A DNA stretch of 63,676 nucleotides, the filler included, from Actinobacteria bacterium UBA7524 (GTDB lineage Bacteria; Actinomycetota; Coriobacteriia; Anaerosomatales; UBA912), in NCBI GenBank assembly GCA_002478275.1. It is 7 parts of 6 records of this genome, joined end to end, with 100 filler letters (N's around TTAATTAATTAA, not from the genome) between each part and the next. Parts side by side here need not be neighbours in the genome. Positions count along the whole stretch, not along the records: positions 11,521 to 37,275 come from DLMY01000003.1; 6 more parts are not named here. One strand, given 5' to 3'. The position numbers and the translations under genes are program-made. Below, one piece after another: positions 1-39,682 of this stretch; the first letter of the stretch is position 1; each line of letters starts with the position of its first letter. Under the pieces are notes generated by a model. It did not search any database. It worked only from the letters and a program-made list of their open reading frames with translations, and was not told the DNA's origin.

Positions 1-1781
1 GTGTACTTGATGGCGTTGTCGAGGAGATTGTCCAGCGCCACTGCTATGTCGGTGGGGTCGGCGACGGCATACAGGTCGACGCCGGCGGTCCCACGCTCCT
101 CGACCTTGAGTGCGAGTTCGCGGCGTTCCGCGGCGACACGGTGACCCGCCAGGGCGTTGGAGAGTACCTCCCTGACGTCTGTGACGGCATCGATCCGTGC
201 GGCCCCTTCGAGTCGTGAGAGATCCAGTAGATCGCCGACGAGACGGGAGAGGCGACGGGACTCCTCGGCGATTTGAGATGCGAACGCGAGCGCCTGCTCG
301 ATCTCCCCGTCCTGTGCGGCATGGTGGACGGATTCGGCCAGAAGGCCGATCGCTGCGGTCGGCGTCTTGAGCTCGTGACTNNNNNNNNNNNNNNNNNNNN
401 NNNNNNNNNNNNNNNNNNNNNNNNNNNNNNNNNNNNNNNNNNNNNNNNNNNNNNNNNNNNNNNNNNNNNNNNNNNNNNNNNNNNNNNNNNNNNNNNNNNN
501 NNNNNNNNNNNNNNNNNGTCGGCGTCTTGAGCTCGTGACTTGCGTTCGCTACGAATTCCTTGCGCATCCGATCCACGCGCGTTCGCTCGGTTATGTCGCT
601 GACCACGATCAGCGTGCGCCGATAGGTGTCGGTCGGATTCAGGTATACGGTGGCCACGCGCAGGAATCGCCCTGCGGGGTCGGGCCCGAACTCTGTGGCG
701 GCCATCGCCGCTCCCCGGACCGCCGCGATGATCGTGGCTGTCATCGAGGCCGGTAGCCCCGCCTGCTCGATGTCGAGCCCACGCCAGCCGGAAGTAGGGG
801 NNNNNNNNNNNNNNNNNNNNNNNNNNNNNNNNNNNNNNNNNNNNNNNNNNNNNNNNNNNNNNNNNNNNNNNNNNNNNNNNNNNNNNNNNNNNNNNNNNNN
901 NNNNNNNNNNNNNNNNNNNNNNNNNNNNNNNNGGGCGAGAACAGTCGCCCCGCCGCATCGTTCGCATATCGTATCTCGGTCTCGTGCAGCAGGAAGACCG
1001 CATCGGTCATGCCGTCAAGCACGGTTCTGAGATTGTGCTGTTCCGTCTGGAGGTCGTCGATACGGATCCTCATCTGCTTGCGGAGATCGGTCAAAGCCGA
1101 GGAGAGCACCGCCAGATCTCCCGCCTCAGCGGGTATCTCGGCGGAGAGGTCGCCGTGGGCCATCGTCTCGGCAGCATGTGAGAGGCGCTGGATGGGCTGA
1201 TATGCGGTAGCTGTGAGGCGCCTGACCAGTGGGACCGCGATGAGCAGGGCCGCTCCCATCAGCATGAGGCCGCTGCGCCTGGCTGACGCGGCGATGCGGC
1301 CTATATCTTCGAGCGACTCGGAGACCCTCAGCGCGCATGCCTCATCCTCGAATGTGACCGGCACGGCGACGTAGATGCGCTCGTTGCCCTGTGTCTCGCT
1401 CAGACGCCGGTCGAACCCGTTCTCGCCACCGAGAGCGGCCGCGACCTCCGGCCTGGAAGCATGGTTCTCCATGGTGGCGGGATCCGCATCGGAGTCGGCG
1501 ATGACGGTACCGTCAGCAGCGACGAGCGTCATGCGCAAGTCCGTCTCTCGCACCAAGCGTGCGATGGCTGTCTCCGGATCTGCACCGGGCAGCTCTATGA
1601 CTTGCGTACCTGCATGTGCGACGGCCAGCAGGTTGGTCTGCTGACGCTCTATCACCGTGGCCGTGAGCGGCCCGGCCAAGCTCCACGCCCAGGCTCCTGC
1701 GAACAAGCTGACGACAAGGAGGTAACCGACACCCAGGCGCGTTCTGTACGACTCGGACCATCGCCGGGTGAAGTCGGCCAT
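1..1781 (-). CDS. phoR: PhoR/SenX3-like sensor histidine kinase (HAMP, PAS, HisKA, HATPase); interrupted by two N gaps and truncated at the window start
   Basis: N-terminal TM helix, extracellular domain, second TM and HAMP. The H-box RKEFVANASHELKTP reads at ~520-570 and the N-box ALDNLLDNAIKYT at 1-40. It follows an OmpR-family regulator divergent from pstS. Confidence 0.85.
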
Positions 1782-1787
1782 GGTGTC

Positions 1788-2543
1788 CTACCGGCCTTCA
1801 CTTCTTGAGCCGGAGGCGGCTTCCGCCTTGGGTGTGGATGCGTGCGCTTCAGGCTTAGGGACCGGATCGAACCGATAGCCCATGCCGTGCACGGTGTGAA
1901 TGTAGAGGTACGCAGAGGGCTCCTCGACGGCCTGGCGCAGTCGCCTGATGTGGACGTCGATCGTACGGGACGAGGGCAGGAAGTCGTAACCCCAGACCTC
2001 CTGCGCGAGGTGTTGGCGCGTACGCAGCGCACCGGGATGCGTCGCCAGCGCCACGAGCAACTGGAATTCCTTGAGGCGGAGTCTCGCGGGTTCGCCCGCG
2101 ACCGAGACCCGCAGCTCGCTGGGCTCTATCAGCAAGTCCCCCGATTCTATGGACGCCTGGCGTTCGAGCACGTCACGCTCTCGCACACGTCGCAGGTTCG
2201 CGCGCACTCGCGCGAGCAGTTCTTCCACCGAGAAAGGCTTGGTGATGTAGTCGTCCGCGCCTGCGTCCAGGCCGCGCACCTTGTCGCGCTCCTGGTCCAG
2301 TGCCGTGACCATGATGATGGCGGTGCTCTTGTCCTCGGAGCGCAGGGTCTCTGCGAACGTGTAGCCGTCGATGCCCGGAAGCATCAGGTCGAGCAGGATC
2401 AGGTCGGGCTTTTCGGACACTGCGATGCCGAGAGCCTCACGACCGTCGGCCGAAGTGAGTGTTTCAAAGCCTGCCCGCTTGAGCGCGTACTCGACGGTCT
2501 GCCTGATGATCGGGTCGTCTTCTACGACCAGGATACGTGCCAT
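1788..2543 (-). CDS. phoP: OmpR/PhoB-family response regulator (PhoP/RegX3-like)
   Basis: Receiver motifs ILVVEDD, LLDLMLPGIDG and GADDYITKPF; winged-helix RTIDVHIRRLR...TVHGMGYRF; divergent from pstSCAB. Confidence 0.9.
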   Translation of the reverse strand: MARILVVEDDPIIRQTVEYALKRAGFETLTSADGREALGIAVSEKPDLILLDLMLPGIDGYTFAETLRSEDKSTAIIMVTALDQERDKVRGLDAGADDYITKPFSVEELLARVRANLRRVRERDVLERQASIESGDLLIEPSELRVSVAGEPARLRLKEFQLLVALATHPGALRTRQHLAQEVWGYDFLPSSRTIDVHIRRLRQAVEEPSAYLYIHTVHGMGYRFDPVPKPEAHASTPKAEAASGSRSEGR

Positions 2544-2607
2544 CTCGCTGCTCCTTCTGGTGGGTACCGTGGGTCATCATCGCACGGCGAGGATTGGTTT
2601 CAAATGC

Positions 2608-2657
2608 GTTTAACAGAAGTGTTACATAGCCGACACGAGTTTAACAGGCGTGCAACC
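2608..2657 (+). promoter_or_regulatory. Putative Pho box: two pairs of 11-bp-spaced direct repeats
   Basis: GTTTAACA(2608)/GTGTTACA(2619) and GTTTAACA(2639)/GTGCAACC(2650) in the phoP-pstS intergenic region, resembling the TT(A/T/C)ACA Pho-box repeat. Confidence 0.6.
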
Positions 2658-2745
2658 AATCACCTGAGGTCGAGACATACGATGCTCCGTGGCCGGCGGG
2701 TTTCGCGTCGGAACGACGTAGTCAGATTGAGAAGGAGACGGACAG

Positions 2746-3642
2746 GTGAAAGCGGAAAGATGGATCGCGGTTGCACTCGCCGCAGTTCTCACGCTCGGTA
2801 CGTTCGGCATGGCGGGGTGCACAGACGGCGGTGCAGGGAGCACGGAAGCGGAGGAGCCGGAGGTCGTTGAGACTGCGGAGATCAGCGGTTCGGTCAACGT
2901 CGGCGGCTCGGACACGATGGTCAACCTCGGCCAGGCTCTCGCCGAGGCGTTCATGGAGGAGTACGACGCGGTCGATATCTCGGTGACCGGTGGCGGCTCC
3001 GGCACGGGAATCGCGGCCCTCATCAATGGGTCGGTGGACTTCGCCAACGCGTCGAGGGCCATCAAGGATGAAGAGGTTGATGAGGCCGAGGCGAATGGTA
3101 TCGAGCCAGTCGAGTATACGGTCGCGTTCGACGGCATCGCGGTTGTGGTCAACCCGGCCCTGGGTGTCGAGGACCTTACGTTCGAGCAGCTCGGCGCCAT
3201 CTACCGCGGGGAGATAACGAACTGGAAGGATGTCGGCGGACCCGACAAGGATATCGTCATCCTCTCCCGGGACACGTCTTCCGGCACGTACGCGTTCTTC
3301 CTCGAGCATGTCGTGCAGGCGGATGACAAAGAGGCGGTGTACTCGCCGAATGCTCGCCTGATGCCGTCGACGCAGGCTATCGTCGATGAGACCATCGCCA
3401 ACGACGCGGCGATCGGCTATGTCGGGCTTGGCTATGTCGTTCCCGAGATCGATATCGTCAAGATCGACGGAGTCGAGGCCAGCGCCGAGGCGGTTCAGGA
3501 CAAGAGCTACAACGTCTCGAGGCCGCTGTTCATGTACTCGGCCGGTGAGCCCGCTGCAGCCGGCAAGGCCTTCATCGACTGGATCCTGTCTGCCGACGGT
3601 CAGGCGGTCGTCGCCGAACTCGGCTTCGTTCCGGTCAGCTAG
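2746..3642 (+). CDS. pstS: Phosphate ABC transporter substrate-binding lipoprotein
   Basis: Lipobox MAGC; motifs GSDTM, GGGSGTGIAAL, ANASR and SRDTSSGT. Confidence 0.95.
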   Translation: MKAERWIAVALAAVLTLGTFGMAGCTDGGAGSTEAEEPEVVETAEISGSVNVGGSDTMVNLGQALAEAFMEEYDAVDISVTGGGSGTGIAALINGSVDFANASRAIKDEEVDEAEANGIEPVEYTVAFDGIAVVVNPALGVEDLTFEQLGAIYRGEITNWKDVGGPDKDIVILSRDTSSGTYAFFLEHVVQADDKEAVYSPNARLMPSTQAIVDETIANDAAIGYVGLGYVVPEIDIVKIDGVEASAEAVQDKSYNVSRPLFMYSAGEPAAAGKAFIDWILSADGQAVVAELGFVPVS

Positions 3643-3647
3643 TCGAT

Positions 3648-4571
3648 ATGGCACGCTCCTCCACAACACGGAGGCGCATCGGCCGCCCGGTCAGTAGTCG
3701 GGCGGCCGATGGTGCTGTCAGGAAGCTGATCACCGCGAACGGGTTGGTCGCCATTCTGATCCTGGCGGCCATCTTCTTGTTCCTGGCGTTCAACTCACAG
3801 CGGGCATTGCAGGAGGTGGGCATCCTCACGATGCTCACAGGCAGGGAGTGGTATCCCACCATCGGGGTGCCCAGATTCGGTTTTCTGCCACTGATGGCGG
3901 GGTCGATGGTCGTCACGCTGACGGCACTCGTCATGTCCGTGCCTGTGAGCATCGCTGCGGCGGTGTTCGTGTCCGAGTTCGCCACGCGGAGGGTCAAGGA
4001 GATCTCCAAGTCGATCATCGAGTTCATGGCAGCAGTTCCGTCCGTGGTCTACGGATTCGTCGGTCTCGCGGTCGTGGTGCCCTGGGTCAAGGAGGTGTTC
4101 CAGCTGAGCAGCGGGCTGTCCGCTCTCTCGGCGGCCGTCGTGCTGGCTTTCATGATCGCGCCCACGATAGTATCGATCGCAGAGGACGCCCTGCACGCTG
4201 TGCCTAACGAGTTGCGTCAGGGCTCGCTTGCTTTGGGTAATACGCGCTGGCAGACCACGTACAAGGTCGTCCTTCCTTCCGCGTCCTCTGGCGTTCTTGC
4301 CGGAGTGATGCTGGGGATGGGACGCGCTATCGGTGAGACCATGGCAGTGCTGATGCTCACCGGCAACGCCGCGATCCTGCCCAGCTCGGTGTTTGATTCC
4401 GTCAGGACCATCACCGGGACCATAGCGGCCGAGATGGGAAACGTCGTCCAGGGCGGGTTGCACCAATCGGTACTCTTCAACCTCGGACTCGTGCTGTTCA
4501 CGATCACCTTCATCATCAACCTCGTGGCTGATCTGGTTCTTGAGAAGCAGCGCAAGAGGTGGCGCAGATGA
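3648..4571 (+). CDS. pstC: Phosphate ABC transporter permease
   Basis: VPSVVYG, EAA-like loop and GRAIGETMAV; follows pstS. Exact start is uncertain. Confidence 0.95.
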   Translation: MARSSTTRRRIGRPVSSRAADGAVRKLITANGLVAILILAAIFLFLAFNSQRALQEVGILTMLTGREWYPTIGVPRFGFLPLMAGSMVVTLTALVMSVPVSIAAAVFVSEFATRRVKEISKSIIEFMAAVPSVVYGFVGLAVVVPWVKEVFQLSSGLSALSAAVVLAFMIAPTIVSIAEDALHAVPNELRQGSLALGNTRWQTTYKVVLPSASSGVLAGVMLGMGRAIGETMAVLMLTGNAAILPSSVFDSVRTITGTIAAEMGNVVQGGLHQSVLFNLGLVLFTITFIINLVADLVLEKQRKRWRR

Positions 4572-5428
4572 GAACCAGGATCAGGCGTGCCAAGGCCGCT
4601 CAGACGGCGGCGATGGTACTCACGGGCCTTGCTGCGGCGTTCATCGTGGCTGCCGCACTGTATCTCCTCGCAATCATCGTGATGCGGGGACTGCCGGGTG
4701 TGAGCTGGGAGTTCCTTACGCAGCCGCCTCGTGGTCAGATGAAGGAGGGCGGCATCTTCCCGGTGATCGTGGGAACCCTTGCGCTGACCGGGCTGACGGC
4801 AGCAGTCAGCCTCCCGGTGGGTATCGCGGCAGGGATCTACTTGTCGGAGTACGCGACCAGGGGGCGCGTGACCCGGATCGTGAGACTGGCGATCAGTAAC
4901 ATGGCCGGTGTGCCATCGATCGTCTACGGACTGTTCGGCCTGGCGCTGTTCGTGAACCTCATGGGGTTCGGTAAGTCCATACTCGCGGGAGGACTCACCC
5001 TTGCGTGCCTCACCTTACCGGTCATCATCACCGCCACCGAGGAGGCCTTGCGCCAGATACCGTCGGACCTGAGACAGGCTTCGCTGGCTCTGGGAGCGAC
5101 GCGCTGGAGGACGATCTACCGCGTAGTGCTGCCCGCGGCGGCCCCGGGCATCGTCACGGGTTCGATACTCGGCCTCTCGCGAGCGGTCGGCGAGACGGCC
5201 CCCATCCTCTTCACCGCGGTGGCGTACTACAAGCGGCAGCTACCCACATCGCTCCTGTCCGATGTCATGGCGCTGCCGTATCACATCTACATCATGGCGA
5301 CCCAGGTGACAGGCCGCCCTGACGAGATCGTTTGGGGCACTGCGCTGGTGTTGGTGGCTGGTGTGACGCTGGTCAGCGTCGCCGCCGCAGGATGGCGCTC
5401 GCTTCAGAGAAGAAAGGTGCGATGGTGA
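4568..5428 (+). CDS. pstA: Phosphate ABC transporter permease
   Basis: [11 protein letters not shown] and [15 protein letters not shown] at 4568 overlaps the pstC stop (ATGA). Confidence 0.95.
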
Positions 5429-6225
5429 TCGGGATCCACGAGAACAGCAGCAACGGCGGCGAGTTCGAGCTGAGAGATGTATCGGTGACGTATGGTTCGG
5501 AACTCGCCGTCGCAGGGGTCTCGATGGATATCGAACGCTGTGCCGTCACCGCTTTGATCGGTCCGTCGGGATGCGGCAAATCCACGCTATTGCGGTGCCT
5601 CAACCGTATGAACGATGAAGTCAGCAATGCAACGGTCGGTGGCTCGATCAAGCTGGACGGGACCGACATCTATGGAAAGGACATGGACCCCGTCGAGCTT
5701 CGGACGCGTGTCGGACAGGTCTTCCAGAAACCCAACCCGTTCCCGATGACGATCTATGACAACGTCGCGTACGGACCGCGTACGCAGGGGCTGCGCCAGC
5801 GGGGTGCGCTTGACGACCTGGTCGAGCGCTCGTTGAAGCGCGCCGCGCTGTGGACCGAGGTCAAGAAGGACCTCAAGAAGCACGCTTTCGAGCTTTCCGG
5901 CGGCCAGCAGCAGCGTCTGTGTATCGCGCGTGCTCTCGCCACACAGCCCGAGGTCCTCTTGATGGACGAGCCTGCGTCTTCGCTCGACCCGATCTCGACG
6001 CAGCAGATCGAGGACACCATCGCCGAACTCAAGTCCTCGGTGACCATAGTGATCGTGACCCACAACATGCAGCAGGCCGCGCGCATCTCCGACTGGACCG
6101 CTTTCATGCTGCGGGAATCGATGGAGGAGCCGGCAGCTCTCGTGGAAGTAGGAGAGACGCGCTCGATGTTCACCAATCCCGGCGACAAGCGCACCGAAGC
6201 CTACATCACCGGTCGTTTCGGCTAG
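5422..6225 (+). CDS. pstB: Phosphate ABC transporter ATP-binding protein
   Basis: Walker [34 protein letters not shown] and C-terminal YITGRFG. ATG at 5422 follows AGAAAGG. Confidence 0.95.
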
Positions 6226-6433
6226 ATCCGCCGAGGAAACCGTTTCTTGCTGAAGGACCTGCCGCGGCGGGTCCTTGGCGTTCCCAGGGCCACCCCGATC
6301 CTGCTGCCTTGCGCAGACAGCACACCTGAGCTGCGGGTTAAGAGTCTGTTTTGAGGTGGATATGTATCCTCGGCCAGTATCGGTCACGCCTGGCCGGGCG
6401 TTGGGTTAGCCGATACGAGGGGAGAGGAATGAC

Positions 6434-7105
6434 ATGGATATCGTACATAGAGTGGTCTTGGGGTGTGTGACCGCCGCGATGTGTGTGAACCTGGGGGCGC
6501 CGGTTGCGGTAGCTGCGCCGGACGGCCGGGGTGCGGAACCGCCGCGCCAGTGCTTCGATGAGAGGCCGGCCATGCCGAAGGACCCGGACCTTCTGGTGCC
6601 TGAAGGCCTCGACGTGCCACCGGAAGAGGCCGGCTCGACCGGAGATGGTTCGAACAACTTGTCGTTTGCGCAGTTCCGAGATGGCGACATCGTGGTCGCG
6701 ATGGAGAGCCTGAGCGTTGGCCATGCCGGTATCTGGGATGCGCGTTACGCCACGGGTGACCGCTCACTTTGCGTCTGGAGTGCGGTCAAGTCAGTTCCGG
6801 CATGTGTGCTGCGCGAGGCGCCGGTGAGGTACCGGACCTATGACAAGGCGTTCGGGCTCTACGTCCCAGGCGTGGCCGCGGCTACAAGGGCCCTGGTACG
6901 CACGTACTGCGCAGCACAGAATGGGGAGCCGTACGACATCTCATCGAGCAAGACCAACGAGAGCAGATGGTACTGCAGCAAGCTCGTGTGGGCGGGCTAC
7001 TTCCGCAGGGCGAATCGCGACATCGACGCTAACGGCGGCTACTGGGTGAGTCCTGCCGACATCTACAGCGATAACGATACAGTCGTGTTCGCTGCCGGTA
7101 ACTAG
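6434..7105 (+). CDS. Secreted permuted papain-like (YiiX/YebB-like NlpC/P60) protein
   Basis: Signal peptide; GDIV, GHAGI, PYD, WYCSKLVWAGY and VSPADI motifs, with His preceding Cys (permuted order). Confidence 0.8.
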   Translation: MDIVHRVVLGCVTAAMCVNLGAPVAVAAPDGRGAEPPRQCFDERPAMPKDPDLLVPEGLDVPPEEAGSTGDGSNNLSFAQFRDGDIVVAMESLSVGHAGIWDARYATGDRSLCVWSAVKSVPACVLREAPVRYRTYDKAFGLYVPGVAAATRALVRTYCAAQNGEPYDISSSKTNESRWYCSKLVWAGYFRRANRDIDANGGYWVSPADIYSDNDTVVFAAGN

Positions 7106-7118
7106 GGGGCTGGGGAGG

Positions 7119-8234
7119 ATGACGGTCATGGGCCGGAGTCACGTACTGAGGTTCACCGCGATCGTGCTTTGCATCGTGTGTGTGATGTCGCTGTGCGGGT
7201 GCGATGGTATTCGAGACGTCTGGCGCGCTGCTGGAGCACCGAAGTCCTTTGAGCCCGTCTCGGGACCCGTGGCCGTCGTCCTCGGCAGTAGACCCCCGCG
7301 GCTGATGTTGGTTGACCCGGATACACTTCAAGTTCGCCATGAGGTGAAGTTGCGGTCGCTTGCCATCGACATCGAGGTCGATGGAAGGTATGTGGTCGTT
7401 CCCGTGTGCGGACCGCCCGGTGCGGAGAGCGATACCGTTGTCGGCGTGGTCGACCTGTCTCAAGGAACTGTGGACTACATCGATACGGGAAGACTTGGAC
7501 CCGACCGTACGTGGGTGGCCGACGGAGGCTGGGCGCTTATCATGAGCTCCGAGGTGCTCGAAGGTGGGATGTCCGGGTTCTCACTGGACATGGCATCTCT
7601 TTCGGGAGTGCCCCTGACGCTTCCCCACGGATCCGGTGCCGGAGCTGTGGTGGGTGATGAGGTCTGGCTGGTTGAGCGGATCGCGCAAGAGGGAGATCCA
7701 GAGGGAGCAGGAGGGGACCTCGTGGAGCGAGTCTGGGCATTCAGCGAGGGCGGCGAAGTCCGCGAGGTGGTGCTGGACGCACGAGACATCGTCAGCATGA
7801 CCGCGGTTGCAGACCACATCGTGCTGGTCCGGGGGTATCCCGCGAGCGGTGAACAGCAGTCGCTCGAGATACTCAGTCGCGAGAACCTGTCTGAGGGTGT
7901 GGTTCGTGCGCTCACGGAGGCGACCGGACCCGTGCGTGCGGTCAGCGCGCTGCCCGGGGGACGCGTGGGTGTGTTGACCGGTTCGGACTCCGCGACGGCT
8001 GACCCGAACGGCCGACTGATAGTAGTCGATGTGGAGACAGCCCAGACAGTGGGGGTCGTGGACGAACTGGATGGGGCTGTCGCACTGTCCGTGGCAGGAT
8101 CGCGGATTCTCGTGCTGTGCGAGGAGTCTGCCGAACTGGCCTGGGTGGACACCGAGCGCTGGGTCGTTGGTGGTCGCACTCGCATCGGCTCTGAGCCTTA
8201 CGATCTTCTCGACTTGTCGTACAGTGAACGGTGA
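7119..8234 (+). CDS. Putative lipoprotein, probable beta-propeller
   Basis: Lipobox-like LCGC after a hydrophobic stretch; repeated VVD/IVVD beta-strand blades. Confidence 0.6.
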   Translation: MTVMGRSHVLRFTAIVLCIVCVMSLCGCDGIRDVWRAAGAPKSFEPVSGPVAVVLGSRPPRLMLVDPDTLQVRHEVKLRSLAIDIEVDGRYVVVPVCGPPGAESDTVVGVVDLSQGTVDYIDTGRLGPDRTWVADGGWALIMSSEVLEGGMSGFSLDMASLSGVPLTLPHGSGAGAVVGDEVWLVERIAQEGDPEGAGGDLVERVWAFSEGGEVREVVLDARDIVSMTAVADHIVLVRGYPASGEQQSLEILSRENLSEGVVRALTEATGPVRAVSALPGGRVGVLTGSDSATADPNGRLIVVDVETAQTVGVVDELDGAVALSVAGSRILVLCEESAELAWVDTERWVVGGRTRIGSEPYDLLDLSYSER

Positions 8235-8250
8235 AACACCTCGATAACGC

Positions 8251-8295
8251 GACAGGACGCGCCGAGGGGGGGAGGAGGCGCGTCCTGTCATATTT
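8251..8295 (+). terminator. Intrinsic terminator-like hairpin
   Basis: 13-bp perfect stem GACAGGACGCGCC/GGCGCGTCCTGTC followed by ATATTT, just after the 8234 stop. Confidence 0.6.
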
Positions 8296-8449
8296 GAGTG
8301 GCGTTACCCGCCCCGAGGGGGGAGGGGGATAGAGCGGGTCGCCATGCTCTGCGACTACATTAGCAAGCTTCATGCCGAAGTTGCCACAAGAAGTCGCTGA
8401 ATAGGATAATGCCAATAGTGGATAGTCGTGTCAAGGCTGGACGTGTTGC

Positions 8450-8471
8450 GAGCGCGTAAGGTTTCGGGGGG
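8450..8471 (+). repeat. 22-bp sequence at a scaffold end, exact reverse complement of 11521..11542 (possible IS or repeat terminus)
   Basis: GAGCGCGTAAGGTTTCGGGGGG here; CCCCCCGAAACCTTACGCGCTC at the start of a different scaffold. Confidence 0.6.
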
Positions 8472-11546: not shown

Positions 11547-12191
11547 TTATGCGGTCCGGGAACGCACCACGAGAACGCGACCCGAGTGCACGGTGACAGA
11601 AGAACGACCCGGTTCCGTCACGTTGCTCAACCCCAGAGAGGACAAAGGATCGAGCAACTGGTTCTTCAGAGGGTAACGAAACCCTCTCAGCGTGACCCGG
11701 GTCTCCTCGGCGAGGGCGAATACGGATACTGTATCGCCGTTACCTGGAAGGATGAGGTGGGTCTCCCCCTCTGGCTGTAATAGCCAGCCATCGAGTTCGC
11801 GTTCCCAGATCGACAAATCCGGAACCGGAGAGCTAGCTATCGACCCGACCGCTGCCAGGGTGTGATCGAGTCTTCCTCCGAAGACCGCCGTCAGGTTGGC
11901 TCGGCGAAACCCGATCTCGTGTGCTACCGCCAGCGCGGCGTCGAGGTCGGTGATGTCTTTGTCCACGGGCAGCTGCCGTATGTCGACACCCTTGGAAGTC
12001 GCGTGTTCGAGTCCCTCGAGCGAGATCGAGTCCATGTCACCGACCAGGACGTCCGGAGTCCTGTCCGCCTGTCGGCACAGATCCCCTCCGGAATCCACGG
12101 CGATCAGGTGAGTGGCCGCTTGAATCAGGGGCGTGTACGCGGCGCTGTCGGAGACGGGAGCTCCGCAGACGATGAGGGTCGACGTGCTCAT
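11547..12191 (-). CDS. thiN: Thiamine pyrophosphokinase
   Basis: AVDSG, GDMDS, DKDITD, GGRLDHTLA, GFRYPL and LGLSN motifs. Confidence 0.93.
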   Translation of the reverse strand: MSTSTLIVCGAPVSDSAAYTPLIQAATHLIAVDSGGDLCRQADRTPDVLVGDMDSISLEGLEHATSKGVDIRQLPVDKDITDLDAALAVAHEIGFRRANLTAVFGGRLDHTLAAVGSIASSPVPDLSIWERELDGWLLQPEGETHLILPGNGDTVSVFALAEETRVTLRGFRYPLKNQLLDPLSSLGLSNVTEPGRSSVTVHSGRVLVVRSRTA

Positions 12192-12787
12192 CGGGCGTTC
12201 TCGGGCAGATCAGTCCCGGTGGGCCGGTCACGTTCCGAGTGGATGCGGGACAGTACCGGCAAGATCACTGCGGCAGCGGCGAAGACAGCGGCGGCGGAGA
12301 CCGGGACGTACAGGTTGTAGATCGCCGAGTACAGAAGAACAGGTTGACCCTCCGGAGCATATTGGCCGAAGAAGACAACACCTGATATCACGTGCGCGAT
12401 GTAGCGGAGTCCCGTTCCCAGAACGACTGCAGGGAGTAAGACCGTCCACACCGCGAGTCGGGCCCGGTCCGCGGCAGCCGAACGCTTCCACTGATACGAA
12501 AGGACGCCAGCGAATCCGACGACCCCGTATGCGACCGGGTAGTCTAGGAGCACCTGCAAGGGATAGTAGATCGCAGGATCGATCATCAGGTCGACCAGAC
12601 CGTACAGGGCACCGGTGACAAGACCTGCGAGTAAGCCCCTACGAACCGCGATGACGAGCAGGGGCAGCATGACAAGCGAGACGGTCCCGCCTTGCGGCAT
12701 GTGGACGATCCGCAATGCGTTGAGAACGGCGGCCAGCGCGATGGCAAGAGCCATCTCCACCAGAACATCGGTACGTAAAGACTTCAT
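12188..12787 (-). CDS. thiT: ECF-type thiamine transporter S component
   Basis: MPQGGTVSL, QVLLDYPVAY and SGVVFFGQYAPEGQPVLLYS are ThiT (YuaJ) signatures; coupled to thiN. Confidence 0.92.
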   Translation of the reverse strand: MKSLRTDVLVEMALAIALAAVLNALRIVHMPQGGTVSLVMLPLLVIAVRRGLLAGLVTGALYGLVDLMIDPAIYYPLQVLLDYPVAYGVVGFAGVLSYQWKRSAAADRARLAVWTVLLPAVVLGTGLRYIAHVISGVVFFGQYAPEGQPVLLYSAIYNLYVPVSAAAVFAAAAVILPVLSRIHSERDRPTGTDLPENAR

Positions 12788-12843
12788 CGACTACCTCCAG
12801 GTCGGGGGAGCGACGAAGTCACCGATGAACCAGCACGGTGTCC

Positions 12844-12940
12844 TACCGTGTTGCGTGTCCCGCATTACCGGGACAGTCATTCCGGTCGTGGTCACTCCAG
12901 ACCACCTCTCAGCCACTTCGCAGTAGCTCCCGATACGGTA
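12844..12940 (-). ncRNA. TPP-riboswitch-like aptamer (variant) upstream of thiT-thiN
   Basis: Minus strand: P1 UACCGU/ACGGUA, GGGAG, P3 CUAC/GUGG, CUGAGA, P3a GUGGUC/GACCAC, GACCG, and P5 with the GUAAUG loop. The J4/5 and J5/4 residues are atypical (see findings). Confidence 0.85.
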
Positions 12941-13027
12941 TGCGGTTTGTACCAGCACATCCTGTCACACGATACGCCGCCGTGCAACCGCAGGCGCTCC
13001 GCTCCGCTCCGTTCCGGCTGCCGAGGA

Positions 13028-14125
13028 TCAGGGAGTGGTGAGGTACTCACCAAGTCCGCGGTATAGGCGCCGCGCCAGCTCATCGGCCCAGACCGGATCT
13101 CGGAACGCGGCCATATCTGAATTGTCGATCGTGGACCCGAGAACGATTCTGACAGCAGGAAGTGCACGACCGGCCGTCACCTCATCGGCATTGATCTGGC
13201 CCGTAGTCGCCGGTGTCCCGCCTTCCCGGAGTTGTGCCAGGATCGAATCGGCAAGGCGTTGCGTGTCGGCGCTTACCGAGGATCCGCCCGAAACGACCGT
13301 GCGAACTGCCAGTCCCGGTGGTGCTACAGAGATCACGTCGAGGCCTACCACGAGCTTCGCCTCGGTCGGTACGGCTGCCGCACGACCAGCCGGAGTGGTG
13401 TCGGTGCTGGTCAGTGATCGCGTCAGCACGACCGTCGCGCCGGATGCTTCAAGCAACGAGCGCAGTCGCCGTGCGACCTCAAGGGTCACGTCACTTTGAC
13501 CTTCCTGCATCGGAGAAGGATCCAGCGCCAACGTGATGCCTTCGATGTCGTACGGCAGCAGCGCAGTGTCCTCGCGAGTCTCCACCGCGACGGTCAGTCG
13601 CACAATGTCGCCTGTGCGCACCGTTGCGCCCGGTGACGGATTCGTCGAGATGACCGTGTCCTTTGCGGCGTCGGACTCCTCCTGTTCGACGCGGACGGTC
13701 ACTCCTTGCGCCTCGAGCTGACTTTGGGCGATGCGCAAGGGCATACCCAAGACATCAGGCATGATGAATTCCTCGGTGCCGGCTGAAACCGTGAGCACCA
13801 CGATGGTGTCGGCGGTCACTCGCGTACCAGCAGGAGGCTCCTGTGCAAGGACGGTACCCGGTGGAGAAGGATCGAAGATGCGCTCCCCGATCTGGCTGCT
13901 CAGCCCCGCCTGCGTGAGGTTCACCGTGGCGACAGAGTCGGTCAGGCCGACGACATCGGGAACGTCAACCAAGTTCCTCTCAGAGAAGAACATGACTGAC
14001 GCAAGTACTATCGCCAGCACGGCGAGGGCCACGACAGCGGAGATCGGGACCCAACGCGGGATGAAGTGTGGCCTTTCCGGCCGATCGCGAGGTACTTCTG
14101 GGATCTGTGTGGTGGCGGAAGTCAT
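13028..14125 (-). CDS. Membrane-anchored protein with 2 PASTA domains and a degenerate Amidase_3 domain
   Basis: N-terminal TM; VPDVVG..A...L...GL and MPDVLG PASTA repeats; C-terminal LALDP...VARRLRSLLEASGATVVLTR...PAVRIVLG amidase fold. Confidence 0.8.
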   Translation of the reverse strand: MTSATTQIPEVPRDRPERPHFIPRWVPISAVVALAVLAIVLASVMFFSERNLVDVPDVVGLTDSVATVNLTQAGLSSQIGERIFDPSPPGTVLAQEPPAGTRVTADTIVVLTVSAGTEEFIMPDVLGMPLRIAQSQLEAQGVTVRVEQEESDAAKDTVISTNPSPGATVRTGDIVRLTVAVETREDTALLPYDIEGITLALDPSPMQEGQSDVTLEVARRLRSLLEASGATVVLTRSLTSTDTTPAGRAAAVPTEAKLVVGLDVISVAPPGLAVRTVVSGGSSVSADTQRLADSILAQLREGGTPATTGQINADEVTAGRALPAVRIVLGSTIDNSDMAAFRDPVWADELARRLYRGLGEYLTTP

Positions 14126-22286: not shown

Positions 22287-22417
22287 CCCTCATCTTCCAG
22301 GCTCACGCCTGCCGAGATTTGGCACCATACGCTGTTTTCGGCGCTGGTTGCCGGGGTTTCACAGGGCTCGGTCCCTCGACCCACTGCGGTCGACATTCGA
22401 CCGCCTCTTGATGAGAA
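22287..22417 (-). ncRNA. SAM-I (S-box) riboswitch upstream of metK
   Basis: Minus strand CUCAUCAAGAG...GAGGGAC..GCCC.UGAAACCCCGGCAACC...GGUGCCAAAUC...GGAAGAUGAG; carries an extra hairpin. Confidence 0.92.
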
Positions 22418-33697: not shown

Positions 33698-33773
33698 TGG
33701 GGTGTGGTGTAACTGGCAACACGTCGGATTCTGGTTCCGAAGAGTCTAGGTTCGAGCCCTAGCACCCCAGCCA
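33698..33773 (+). tRNA. tRNA-Gln(CTG)
   Basis: Cloverleaf TGGGGTG...CACCCCAGCCA; anticodon arm TCGGA-TTCTGGT-TCCGA; GGTTCGAG T-loop. Confidence 0.96.
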
Positions 33774-33778
33774 GACGC

Positions 33779-33854
33779 GGCCCGTTCGTCTAGCGGCCTA
33801 GGACACCGCCCTCTCAAGGCGGAGGCACGGGTTCGAACCCCGTACGGGCTACCA
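33779..33854 (+). tRNA. tRNA-Glu(CTC)
   Basis: GGCCCGT...ACGGGCTACCA; anticodon arm CCGCC-CTCTCAA-GGCGG. Confidence 0.96.
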
Positions 33855-33864
33855 CGAGTCTCAC

Positions 33865-33900
33865 GAAACCGTCCCGGTCCGGGGCGGTTTCGCTCGTTTA
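33865..33900 (+). terminator. Terminator after the tRNA pair
   Basis: CGAAACCGTCCCGG/CCGGGGCGGTTTCG hairpin followed by a T-rich tail. Confidence 0.65.
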
Positions 33901-33938
33901 CGGCACTCCTCGGCATACGACCTGCTAGACTATCGTGT

Positions 33939-34286
33939 GGAGTGGGTCAGGCGATCGCGCGTGTCGAGCGTAGGCACGTGAGGAAAGTCCGGACTCCACA
34001 GGGCAGGGTGCCTGCTAACGGCAGGGCGGGGCGACCCGACGGAAAGTGCCACAGAAAAGAAGACTCCACAGGCGGAGACGTCTGCGGAAAAGCTGAAACG
34101 GTGCGGTAAGAGCGCACCAGCGTCGCGGTGACGCGGCGGCTTGGCAAACCCCACCCGGAGCAAGGGCATATAGGAGCGGTCAAGGCTGGCCCGGCCGGCG
34201 CTCGGGTAGCCCGCACGAGGTCATCGGCGACGGTGGTCCCAGATAAATGATCGTCCGCGACAGAATCCGGCTTATCGACCCACTCC
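33939..34286 (+). ncRNA. rnpB: RNase P RNA (bacterial type A)
   Basis: GAGGAAAGTCCGGACTCC, GGAAAGTGCCACAGAAA and ACAGAATCCGGCTTA; P1 GGAGTGGGTC/GACCCACTCC. Confidence 0.97.
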
Positions 34287-34300
34287 CACCGGACACGAGA

Positions 34301-39607: not shown

Positions 39608-39682
39608 TGGTGGGCGATACTGGATTTGAACCAGTGACTTCTACCGTGTGAAGGTAGCACTCTCCCGCTGAGTTAATCGCCC
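39608..39682 (-). tRNA. tRNA-Val(CAC)
   Basis: Minus strand GGGCGAT...ATCGCCCACCA; anticodon arm CTACC-TTCACAC-GGTAG. Confidence 0.96.

Follow-up and report, generated by a model that had tools for sequence, protein, structure and literature searches.

A TPP-like aptamer was located on the minus strand (12940..12844) of the window, i.e., the whole 63,676-nt stretch of DNA that was analysed, coming from the draft assembly (60 contigs) of Actinobacteria bacterium UBA7524. The aptamer lies 5' of the genes encoding ThiT and thiamine pyrophosphokinase, and the start of thiN overlaps the stop of thiT (ATGA). The original prediction had quoted the aptamer sequence correctly and had described a non-canonical arm upstream of thiT-thiN. 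Both the arm and the genes are present, the latter identified by matches to PF09515, PF04263 and PF04265 downstream of the element, and the minus-strand location is a point that the prediction lacked. The features of the locus are as follows:

12935..12940, minus strand: 5' strand of P1 (UACCGU), which pairs with 12844-12849.
12930..12933, minus strand: 5' strand of P2 (UCGG), making up with G12929 and A12928 the GGGA(G) of the pyrimidine-sensor helix.
12912..12927, minus strand: P3 hairpin (GCUAC-UGCGAA-GUGGC), helix 3.
12907..12912, minus strand: J3/2 (CUGAGA), the T-loop that binds the pyrimidine (HMP ring) in TPP riboswitches according to the accessible text of PMC3764141.
12888..12905, minus strand: P3a hairpin (GUGGUC-UGGAGU-GACCAC), helix 4.
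12882..12885, minus strand: 3' strand of P2 (CCGG), helix 2.
12876..12878, minus strand: GAC, i.e., the junction G and A followed by a C that pairs with G12854 (conserved columns).
12869..12875, minus strand: 5' strand of the merged P4-P5 helix (UGUCCCG), with U-G-U set at C58, U59 and G60 by Infernal.
12863..12868, minus strand: L5 docking loop (GUAAUG; conserved columns).
12856..12862, minus strand: 3' strand of the merged P4-P5 helix (CGGGACA), with A-C-A in place of the J5/4 C77-G78 region.
12852..12855, minus strand: one-nucleotide bulge (C12855) followed by G-C-A, which closes the arm at the junction (alignment columns).
12844..12849, minus strand: 3' strand of P1 (ACGGUA), helix 1 of the 100-sequence alignment.
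12834..12839, minus strand: ACCGUG, complementary to the P1 3' strand CACGGU (12850-12845), a putative competitor of P1.
12794..12798, minus strand: Shine-Dalgarno (SD) sequence GGAGG, 6 nt upstream of the ATG at 12787.
12188..12787, minus strand: thiT, S component of an ECF-type thiamine transporter, 199 aa (PF09515, E 5.9e-51).
11547..12191, minus strand: thiN (TPK), thiamine pyrophosphokinase, 214 aa (PF04263, E 4.1e-22; PF04265, E 2.2e-9).

A permissive scan of positions 12600-13100 against all 4227 Rfam families gave RF00059 as the sole match. The match was full-length and weak (12834-12943, minus strand), with 27.1 bits and an E value of 0.0028 versus the gathering score of 54.3, and it was the only TPP-like match in the entire 1.81-Mb, 83%-complete assembly. 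At Rfam gathering thresholds the window contained RNase P, three tRNAs and a SAM riboswitch, and no TPP element. In the Infernal alignment to RF00059, proposed as a check in the original prediction, the mismatches were confined to P4 and J4/5, the non-standard pairs were all found in P4 and the pocket positions deviated. The single-sequence minimum free energy (MFE) fold did not reproduce the aptamer and was not used for the architecture. The covariance model R1, described below, placed the aptamer at 12845-12940 (minus strand), and the sixth P1 pair, U12940-A12844, was read directly from the sequence.

The element shares the three-way junction, P1 and the P2-P3 pyrimidine arm with the TPP riboswitch or THI element (RF00059; e.g., E. 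coli thiM, PDB 2GDI). It also has the invariant GGGAG and CUGAGA, the optional P3a, the (G/A)UAAUG L5 and the location in a leader of thiamine transport or salvage genes. The fold, the pyrimidine-sensor residues, the L5 adenines and the gene location agree with membership of this family, whereas the gathering score and the pocket do not. Unlike the canonical TPP riboswitch, the variant does not keep the conserved J4/5-J5/4 pocket (G60, C77 and G78) or U59-A80, with the two strands pairing with each other and the 3' strand being shorter.

The conservation of the arm was examined in related genomes. Scanning of 61 relatives with RF00059 revealed 19 sub-threshold matches, and the RF00059 gathering threshold was passed by none of the 61. 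By eye, the matches formed two kinds: class A with the canonical arm and class B with a short arm as in the window. R1 was built as a covariance model from seven class-B sequences. With a cut-off of E ≤ 0.01 it matched 133 of the 146 genomes of the order, and in 126 of these 146 genomes there was one strong match (60.4-105.1 bits), the next best match scoring 41.6 bits.

A structure-fitted alignment, A2, comprised 100 of the 126 variant elements; the 26 outside it were L030, L032, L039, L043, L048, L049, L067, L069, L081, L100, L103, L106, L119, L121, L123, L126, L129, L132, L136 and L138-L144, with the last eight among the lowest scorers. Standard pairs occupied 95.9% of the cells in A2, in comparison with 30.6-45.6% when the 3' partners were slid by 1-3 columns. 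Both sides changed in 18 of the 27 pairs, the five measures used were reached by none of 500 shuffles and all five helices were supported. Because fitting A2 to its own model biases it towards the structure, and because its members are mutually related, the slid-partner control is the more telling one. P1 was 93.7% paired (both sides changing in four of five counted pairs), P2 99.0%, P3 99.8% (two of five) and P3a 95.3% (five of six), and in helix 5, the merged P4-P5, six of seven pairs changed on both sides. The GGGAG segment (alignment columns 10-16) and CUGAGA (columns 43-48) were invariant in all 100 sequences.

The arm in A2 starts at the junction with G (96 of the 100 sequences), A (99) and C (97), followed by a 5' strand of 7 nt with the consensus N-G(96)-Y(91)-N-C(98)-C(94)-G(100). 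L5 is R-U-A-A-U-G (G/A 84/16, U 98, A 100, A 100, U 100 and G 98) and the 3' strand is C(100)-G(97)-G(98)-N-R(92)-C/U(97)-N. An extra 3' nucleotide (column 118) is absent in 29 of the 100 sequences, and the arm ends with G, C and A in columns 119, 121 and 122 (89, 80 and 99 of 100, respectively), after which come two variable positions and P1. Together, P4 and P5 make up an almost uninterrupted helix of seven pairs, with 0-2 extra nucleotides on the 3' side, a C:G pair and the junction G.A; in the window, the arm reads GAC-UGUCCCG-GUAAUG-CGGGACA-C-GCA. The junction of the variant, G-A-C ... G-C-A, keeps the G and A of one strand and the A of the other and differs from the TPP riboswitch in the place of the canonical consensus G, where C was found in 80, G in 12 and A in 7 of the 100 sequences. 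By analogy with the k-junction described in the accessible part of PMC10573300, A:C may stand here in place of A:G.

These data refine several statements of the original prediction. The retention of the pyrimidine half and L5 is borne out, GGGAG, CUGAGA and GUAAUG all being present. The compensatory nature of the changes is likewise upheld by the arm pairs changing on both sides, with G60, C77 and G78 gone, and the thiT leaders gathered from relatives show covariation in the new helix. The proposed map onto thiM numbering is correct as to the replacement of the pocket by pairs and approximate in its positions, since Infernal deletes A61/U62 and G78 and sets U, G and U at C58, U59 and G60. The CCU/AGG P4, which had been described as lost, persists as covarying pairs and a conserved C:G, merged with P5.

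According to the accessible text of PMC3764141, U59, A80, G60, C77 and G78 are highly conserved residues of the second arm; G60, C77 and G78 interact with the metal ion coordinating the pyrophosphate, and G78 also contacts the pyrophosphate directly. A preprint also concerned with the pocket residues (bioRxiv 10.1101/2025.01.21.634073) gives, in its accessible part, affinities of the E. coli aptamer for thiamine and TMP that fall short of that for TPP by about 3 and 1.4 orders of magnitude, respectively. It further describes mutants with randomised A61, C63, C77 and G78, which answered a designed ligand and not added thiamine. The canonical positions were mapped in the variant by the Infernal alignment and by comparison with the near-canonical actinobacterial arms L279 and L214, whose 5' strand has an equal length. 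The place of U59 was occupied by G in 96 of the 100 sequences and that of G60 by C or U in 91, with G kept in 9. The place of C77 had G or A in 92 sequences (G in 81) and C in 3, whereas that of G78 had C or U in 97 and G in 1. The conserved pyrophosphate pocket (G60, C77, G78 and U59-A80) is therefore not kept among the 100 aligned copies, and it is a well-founded expectation from these base identities that the variant would not read the pyrophosphate. The new helix is not featureless, as a conserved G:C (or G:U) stands next to a Y:R pair, and some specific contact may remain.

Class A elements (L002-L007 and L009-L011) come from the same order, share the pyrimidine arm and L5 with the variant and also score below the Rfam gathering threshold (33.0-43.2 bits). 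They differ in having a hairpin inserted in J4/5 and a canonical pocket, the residues of which are kept in ACCUG ... CCGG-CG-CAGGGA. In 8 of the 8 loci examined they preceded genes for a ThiS-ThiF fusion (two loci), ThiM (five) or ThiE (one), and not ThiT. Class A and the variant coexist in three genomes (G018, G020 and G037). A sub-threshold Rfam score was considered as a definition of the variant and ruled out, because near-canonical actinobacterial elements (L279, 42.0 bits, and L214, 39.5 bits) also fail, which makes the Rfam threshold a weak criterion in this phylum. Among 20 assorted loci compared with RF00059, 12 had matches of 36.6-46.7 bits, all below gathering, and the other eight had none at E ≤ 0.01.

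The gene association of the variant was uniform in the order. A ThiT homologue was encoded downstream, on the same strand, for 125 of the 126 variant elements, the exception having 51 nt to the contig end, and, where 1300 nt or more of downstream sequence was available (28 loci), ThiT was followed by a pyrophosphokinase homologue in 27. The architecture, conservation and covariation of the variant and its association with thiT are established features of the order. ThiC and ThiE were not found in the source genome (G000), which is 83% complete. ThiE was above the cut-off in 15 of the 146 genomes of the order, eight of which also carry the variant; as read from the table, 118 of the 126 variant genomes had no ThiE. 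On the ThiE contig of 14 of these 15 genomes there was a low-scoring R1 match, and 12 of the 14 were canonical-arm elements. The host bacterium is likely B1-dependent.

Outside the order, R1 matches at E ≤ 0.001 were detected in other orders of the class, in 2 of 2 genomes of f26, 9 of 10 of f28, 3 of 3 of f30 and 1 of 1 of f32. Twenty loci were fetched from other orders; 15 had the compact arm, 13 of them with ThiT downstream, and five (families f27, f29 and f31) had canonical arms. A variant-specific DNA pattern, matching 115 of the 126 variants and none of nine class A loci, was run over one genome per GTDB species and identified at least 120 loci. According to record titles, the matches listed came from Coriobacteriia, many Nanopelagicales (Ca. 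Planktophila and Ca. Nanopelagicus) and a few Mycobacteriales, Frankiaceae and Pseudonocardia; among the matches listed, the arms of the last three groups were near-canonical. R1 scored 67 of the 68 tested pattern loci at 38-71 bits, and several Nanopelagicales copies had a fully continuous helix. One pattern match, L206, looks like chance. The counting of paired runs over the pattern matches listed could not split the variant from near-canonical arms, since a G60:C77 pair can be drawn in canonical actinobacterial arms as well; base identities were used instead.

A ThiT homologue was found downstream in 20 of 120 loci among the matches listed. Among the sampled pattern matches, the compact arm was also present 5' of genes for Pnu-family transporters (PF04973; L165 and L234), ThiD (PF08543; L170), ThiM (PF02110; L193) and cytosine/purine-type permeases (PF02133; L226 and L229), the Pnu-family association occurring in Nanopelagicales and the thiD, thiM and permease associations in other Coriobacteriia. 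A ThiT-specific thiamine sensor as a general rule was ruled out by these genes, which also weaken the argument from gene logic (an importer together with a kinase acting on thiamine) put forward in the original prediction. The accessible text of PMC5301498 describes acI strains as thiamine auxotrophs with a putative pnuC/PnuT gene preceded by a THI element, and carries no remark on the arm of that element.

The leader downstream of the aptamer was analysed for a possible expression platform. No terminator-like site was found in the leader, and the MFE fold puts the SD inside a long hairpin. No sigma-70-like promoter sites were detected in 12150-13150, a scan that carries little information for this phylum. 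Other orders provided 14 compact-arm elements for comparison; nine of these have an SD beginning 11-14 nt past L5, at the place taken here by the P1 3' strand, and in three of those elements (G164, G156 and G166) P1 finds its best partner in the SD itself. With no terminator, the SD in a predicted hairpin and the SD at the P1 3' strand elsewhere, the direction of the switch is most likely OFF, with a predicted action on translation.

The energy calculations were made for 122 leaders. Duplexes between the aptamer 5' part and the leader had a mean of -16.2 kcal/mol versus -13.5 kcal/mol for shuffled sequences, with 43 of the 122 leaders beating their own shuffles by more than 3 kcal/mol, and leader/SD duplexes had a mean of -16.5 versus -15.1 for shuffled ones. 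In 71 of the 122, the two leader segments (anti-aptamer and anti-SD) shared 4 nt or more. For 118 leaders with heuristic start codons, the predicted SD accessibility was 0.297 with P1/P2 enforced versus 0.336 with P1 barred; the bound state had the lower value, by more than 0.1, in 20 leaders and the higher one in 7. The leader of the window showed no excess of aptamer complementarity over shuffles (-11.8 versus -11.0 kcal/mol), and its predicted SD accessibility was 0.414 in both states. The competitor of P1 suggested in the original prediction is thus real as regards the complementarity of ACCGUG, but the energy calculations show no difference between the states of its own leader and a weak trend over the leaders as a whole. 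CGAC/GUCG, suggested there to enclose the SD, does flank GGAGG; neither this feature nor ACCGUG was seen by eye as a conserved motif in other leaders.

Variants of this kind have been hinted at before. The accessible text of McCown et al. 2017 (PMC5473149) mentions numerous TPP variants with a mutated pyrophosphate core, then unpublished (Roth et al., in preparation), which show comparable affinities for thiamin, TMP and TPP and occur in many bacteria, sometimes sharing the genome with other TPP riboswitch types. The element described here resembles them in its mutated pyrophosphate core, TPP-like aptamer, wide distribution and coexistence with another type (in G018, G020 and G037). The ligand data are theirs, and the accessible text is without a consensus, sequences or taxa; going by the description given there, the element in the window most likely belongs to the same variants. 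A later full account of them was not found in open-access PMC and bioRxiv. A 2022 review of riboswitch ligands (PMC9971707) names TPP and HMP-PP as ligands in its accessible part, and not thiamin itself.

The reading favoured here, and given a little better than an even chance, is that the element is a lineage-wide TPP riboswitch variant acting as a phosphorylation-blind sensor of the thiamine moiety and a translational OFF switch. The intact J3/2 pocket would still bind the aminopyrimidine end of thiamine compounds and the second arm would still dock through L5, while the pyrophosphate would no longer be read in the canonical way. With the pyrophosphate readers gone, the RNA would respond alike to thiamine, TMP and TPP and serve as a sensor of the thiamine pool. 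A bound ligand would favour P1 and the folded state of the aptamer and would reduce the translation of thiT-thiN via the ribosome-binding site. Since neither ThiC nor ThiE was seen in the 83%-complete G000, all thiamine species would come from import by ThiT and one kinase step, and a pool sensor might be enough to shut the uptake. The idea of an unphosphorylated ligand in the original prediction is supported as far as pyrophosphate seems not to be needed, but the only published statement, in the accessible text of PMC5473149, describes a loss of discrimination and not a switch to an unphosphorylated ligand. A bolder proposal, tentative and rather doubtful in its full form, is that the compact-arm elements are a riboswitch class of their own sensing thiamine (the B1 pool). 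In that proposal, the L5-docked conserved G-Y/R-C step would close over the thiazole end, a mode unseen in solved TPP structures. Such a class would be characteristic of thiamine-auxotrophic Actinomycetota (uncultured Coriobacteriia and freshwater acI/Nanopelagicales) and would gate uptake of the ThiT or PnuT type.

Other explanations of the remodelled arm were weighed against the pool sensor. A non-functional TPP riboswitch, whether decaying or mis-sequenced, would fit the sub-threshold Rfam score (27.1 bits) and the draft state of the source genome (60 contigs). However, the arm covaries and recurs in 126 of the order's 146 genomes as well as in other orders and classes, and the homologues are without the canonical G60/C77/G78 pattern. 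Such a conserved, covarying arm rules out decay or sequencing error, the chance of which is taken as negligible. It is also conceivable, if unlikely, that the RNA is still TPP-selective and that only the architecture has changed, the pyrophosphate and metals being read by the conserved G-Y/R-C step and the small 3' bulge. Each strand indeed retains a conserved guanine (at the place of U59 in 96 of 100 and at that of C77 in 81 of 100), and bases conserved beyond the needs of pairing could provide a new metal or phosphate contact keeping the TPP selectivity. The 5' strand of the arm is as long as that of the near-canonical L279 and L214, so the arm geometry may be preserved, and the genes found across lineages (thiT, Pnu-family transporter, thiD, thiM and permease) form a normal TPP regulon that requires no new ligand. 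On the other hand, the metal- and pyrophosphate-binding residues given in the accessible text of PMC3764141 are not kept, and the randomised A61, C63, C77 and G78 mutants in that of the preprint (10.1101/2025.01.21.634073) answer the designed ligand, not added thiamine. Moreover, about 29 of the 100 copies lack the bulge nucleotide and several Nanopelagicales helices are fully continuous, with no obvious pocket, and the sole published statement on such variants, in the accessible part of PMC5473149, speaks of no discrimination.

Selectivity for a ligand that carries no phosphate, either free thiamine or just the HMP pyrimidine, with rejection of TPP, is regarded as improbable. It would agree with the loss of the canonical pyrophosphate residues and with the strict split in the order, where the canonical pocket is found on ThiS-ThiF, ThiM and ThiE (8 of 8 examined) and the variant on ThiT (125 of 126). 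The presence of both types in one genome (G018, G020 and G037) is typical of cases in which two specificities are in use, but the split may merely reflect leaders inherited with their own operons. Nothing in the sequence excludes phosphate, the helix being smooth and free of an obvious clash, and PMC5473149 in its accessible text gives similar affinities for thiamin, TMP and TPP and not TPP rejection. An OFF switch responding to free thiamine would also repress the kinase that consumes it, an odd arrangement.

No riboswitch class is more widespread than the TPP riboswitches, whose pyrophosphate pocket is held to be essential for affinity and selectivity. The variant is well defined and widespread, and its novelty is limited, because such variants and their relaxed specificity were announced by the Breaker laboratory in 2017, as the accessible part of PMC5473149 indicates. 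A natural, covarying replacement of the pocket by base pairs in hundreds of species offers a system for studying changes of aptamer specificity and a natural scaffold for thiamine sensors with no need of the charged pyrophosphate. The leader in acI has been described as an ordinary THI element, and the accessible text of PMC5301498 makes no remark on its arm. The apparent auxotrophy of the variant genomes (118 of 126 without ThiE) suggests that vitamin-dependent lineages might sense the vitamin pool and not the finished cofactor. Thiamine regulation is under-annotated in uncultured Coriobacteriia, as the Rfam TPP model misses the variant.

Rfam also holds a model of the HMP-PP (thiS motif) riboswitch. 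This riboswitch (PMC6478431) resembles the pool sensor proposed here in belonging to the thiamine pathway and sensing something other than TPP. It differs in being an unrelated, small aptamer embedded in a terminator, and the scan of the window's leader gave RF00059 only.

The junction position occupied by G in the canonical GGGA was C in 80 of the 100 variants, the aligned copies of the compact-arm TPP-like element from the same order, implying that in the k-junction of these RNAs the second sheared A:G pair would be replaced by an A:C. In the window, the strands concerned and the gene upstream of the riboswitch are located as follows:

12876-12878 and 12852-12854, minus strand: strands of the three-way junction
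13028-14125, minus strand: protein with two PASTA domains (PF03793) fused to an N-acetylmuramoyl-L-alanine amidase domain (PF01520), upstream neighbour of the riboswitch

Downstream of the element, the stop codon of thiT overlaps the start codon of thiN in an ATGA (window 12188-12191), which suggests that the two genes are translationally coupled and that both may be governed by one riboswitch.

The TPP elements with a canonical pocket found in the same order (loci L002-L007 and L009-L011; for example L002:1501-1629) have an additional GC-rich hairpin inserted in J4/5, between P4 and P5. These elements are followed by ThiS-ThiF, ThiM or ThiE. Because they score only 33.0-43.2 bits with the Rfam TPP model RF00059, they are also missed at the Rfam threshold.

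Another order of the same class contains a compact-arm element at the following position:

G198:C1:906501-906596, minus strand: compact-arm element (locus L153)

The ORF after it is not ThiT, and its start resembles, by eye only, the ThiD-like ORFs of loci L178 and L183.

A compact arm as in the window was also observed in leaders of Pnu-family transporter genes of Nanopelagicales (acI), e.g. L165, L195 and L234, which are named plain THI elements in the literature (PMC5301498). Among the matches listed from other GTDB species (L165-L283), the bulge was often absent altogether from the compact arm of these leaders, and a GGAAAGG-type Shine-Dalgarno sequence was located directly 3' of this arm. 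Two arm subtypes could be distinguished among the same listed matches, one keeping C-G after P5 and the other having U-U or U-G at this place.

The window appears to span several contigs of the draft genome, so long-range synteny inside it is not to be trusted; positions 1-8471 are its sole portion on contig C1, and the riboswitch belongs to contig C3 (C3:1314-1423). Other RNAs encoded in the window were:

22287-22417, minus strand: SAM-I riboswitch, 51.1 bits (gathering score 44.4)
33698-34290, plus strand: two tRNA genes and a bacterial class A RNase P RNA (294 bits)
39611-39682, minus strand: third tRNA gene, further on from the RNase P RNA locus

Both tRNA genes of the plus-strand locus are situated immediately upstream of the RNase P RNA. 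In the printed alignment, the SAM-I riboswitch has an insertion of 34 nt at a place that comprises 12 nt in the model consensus.
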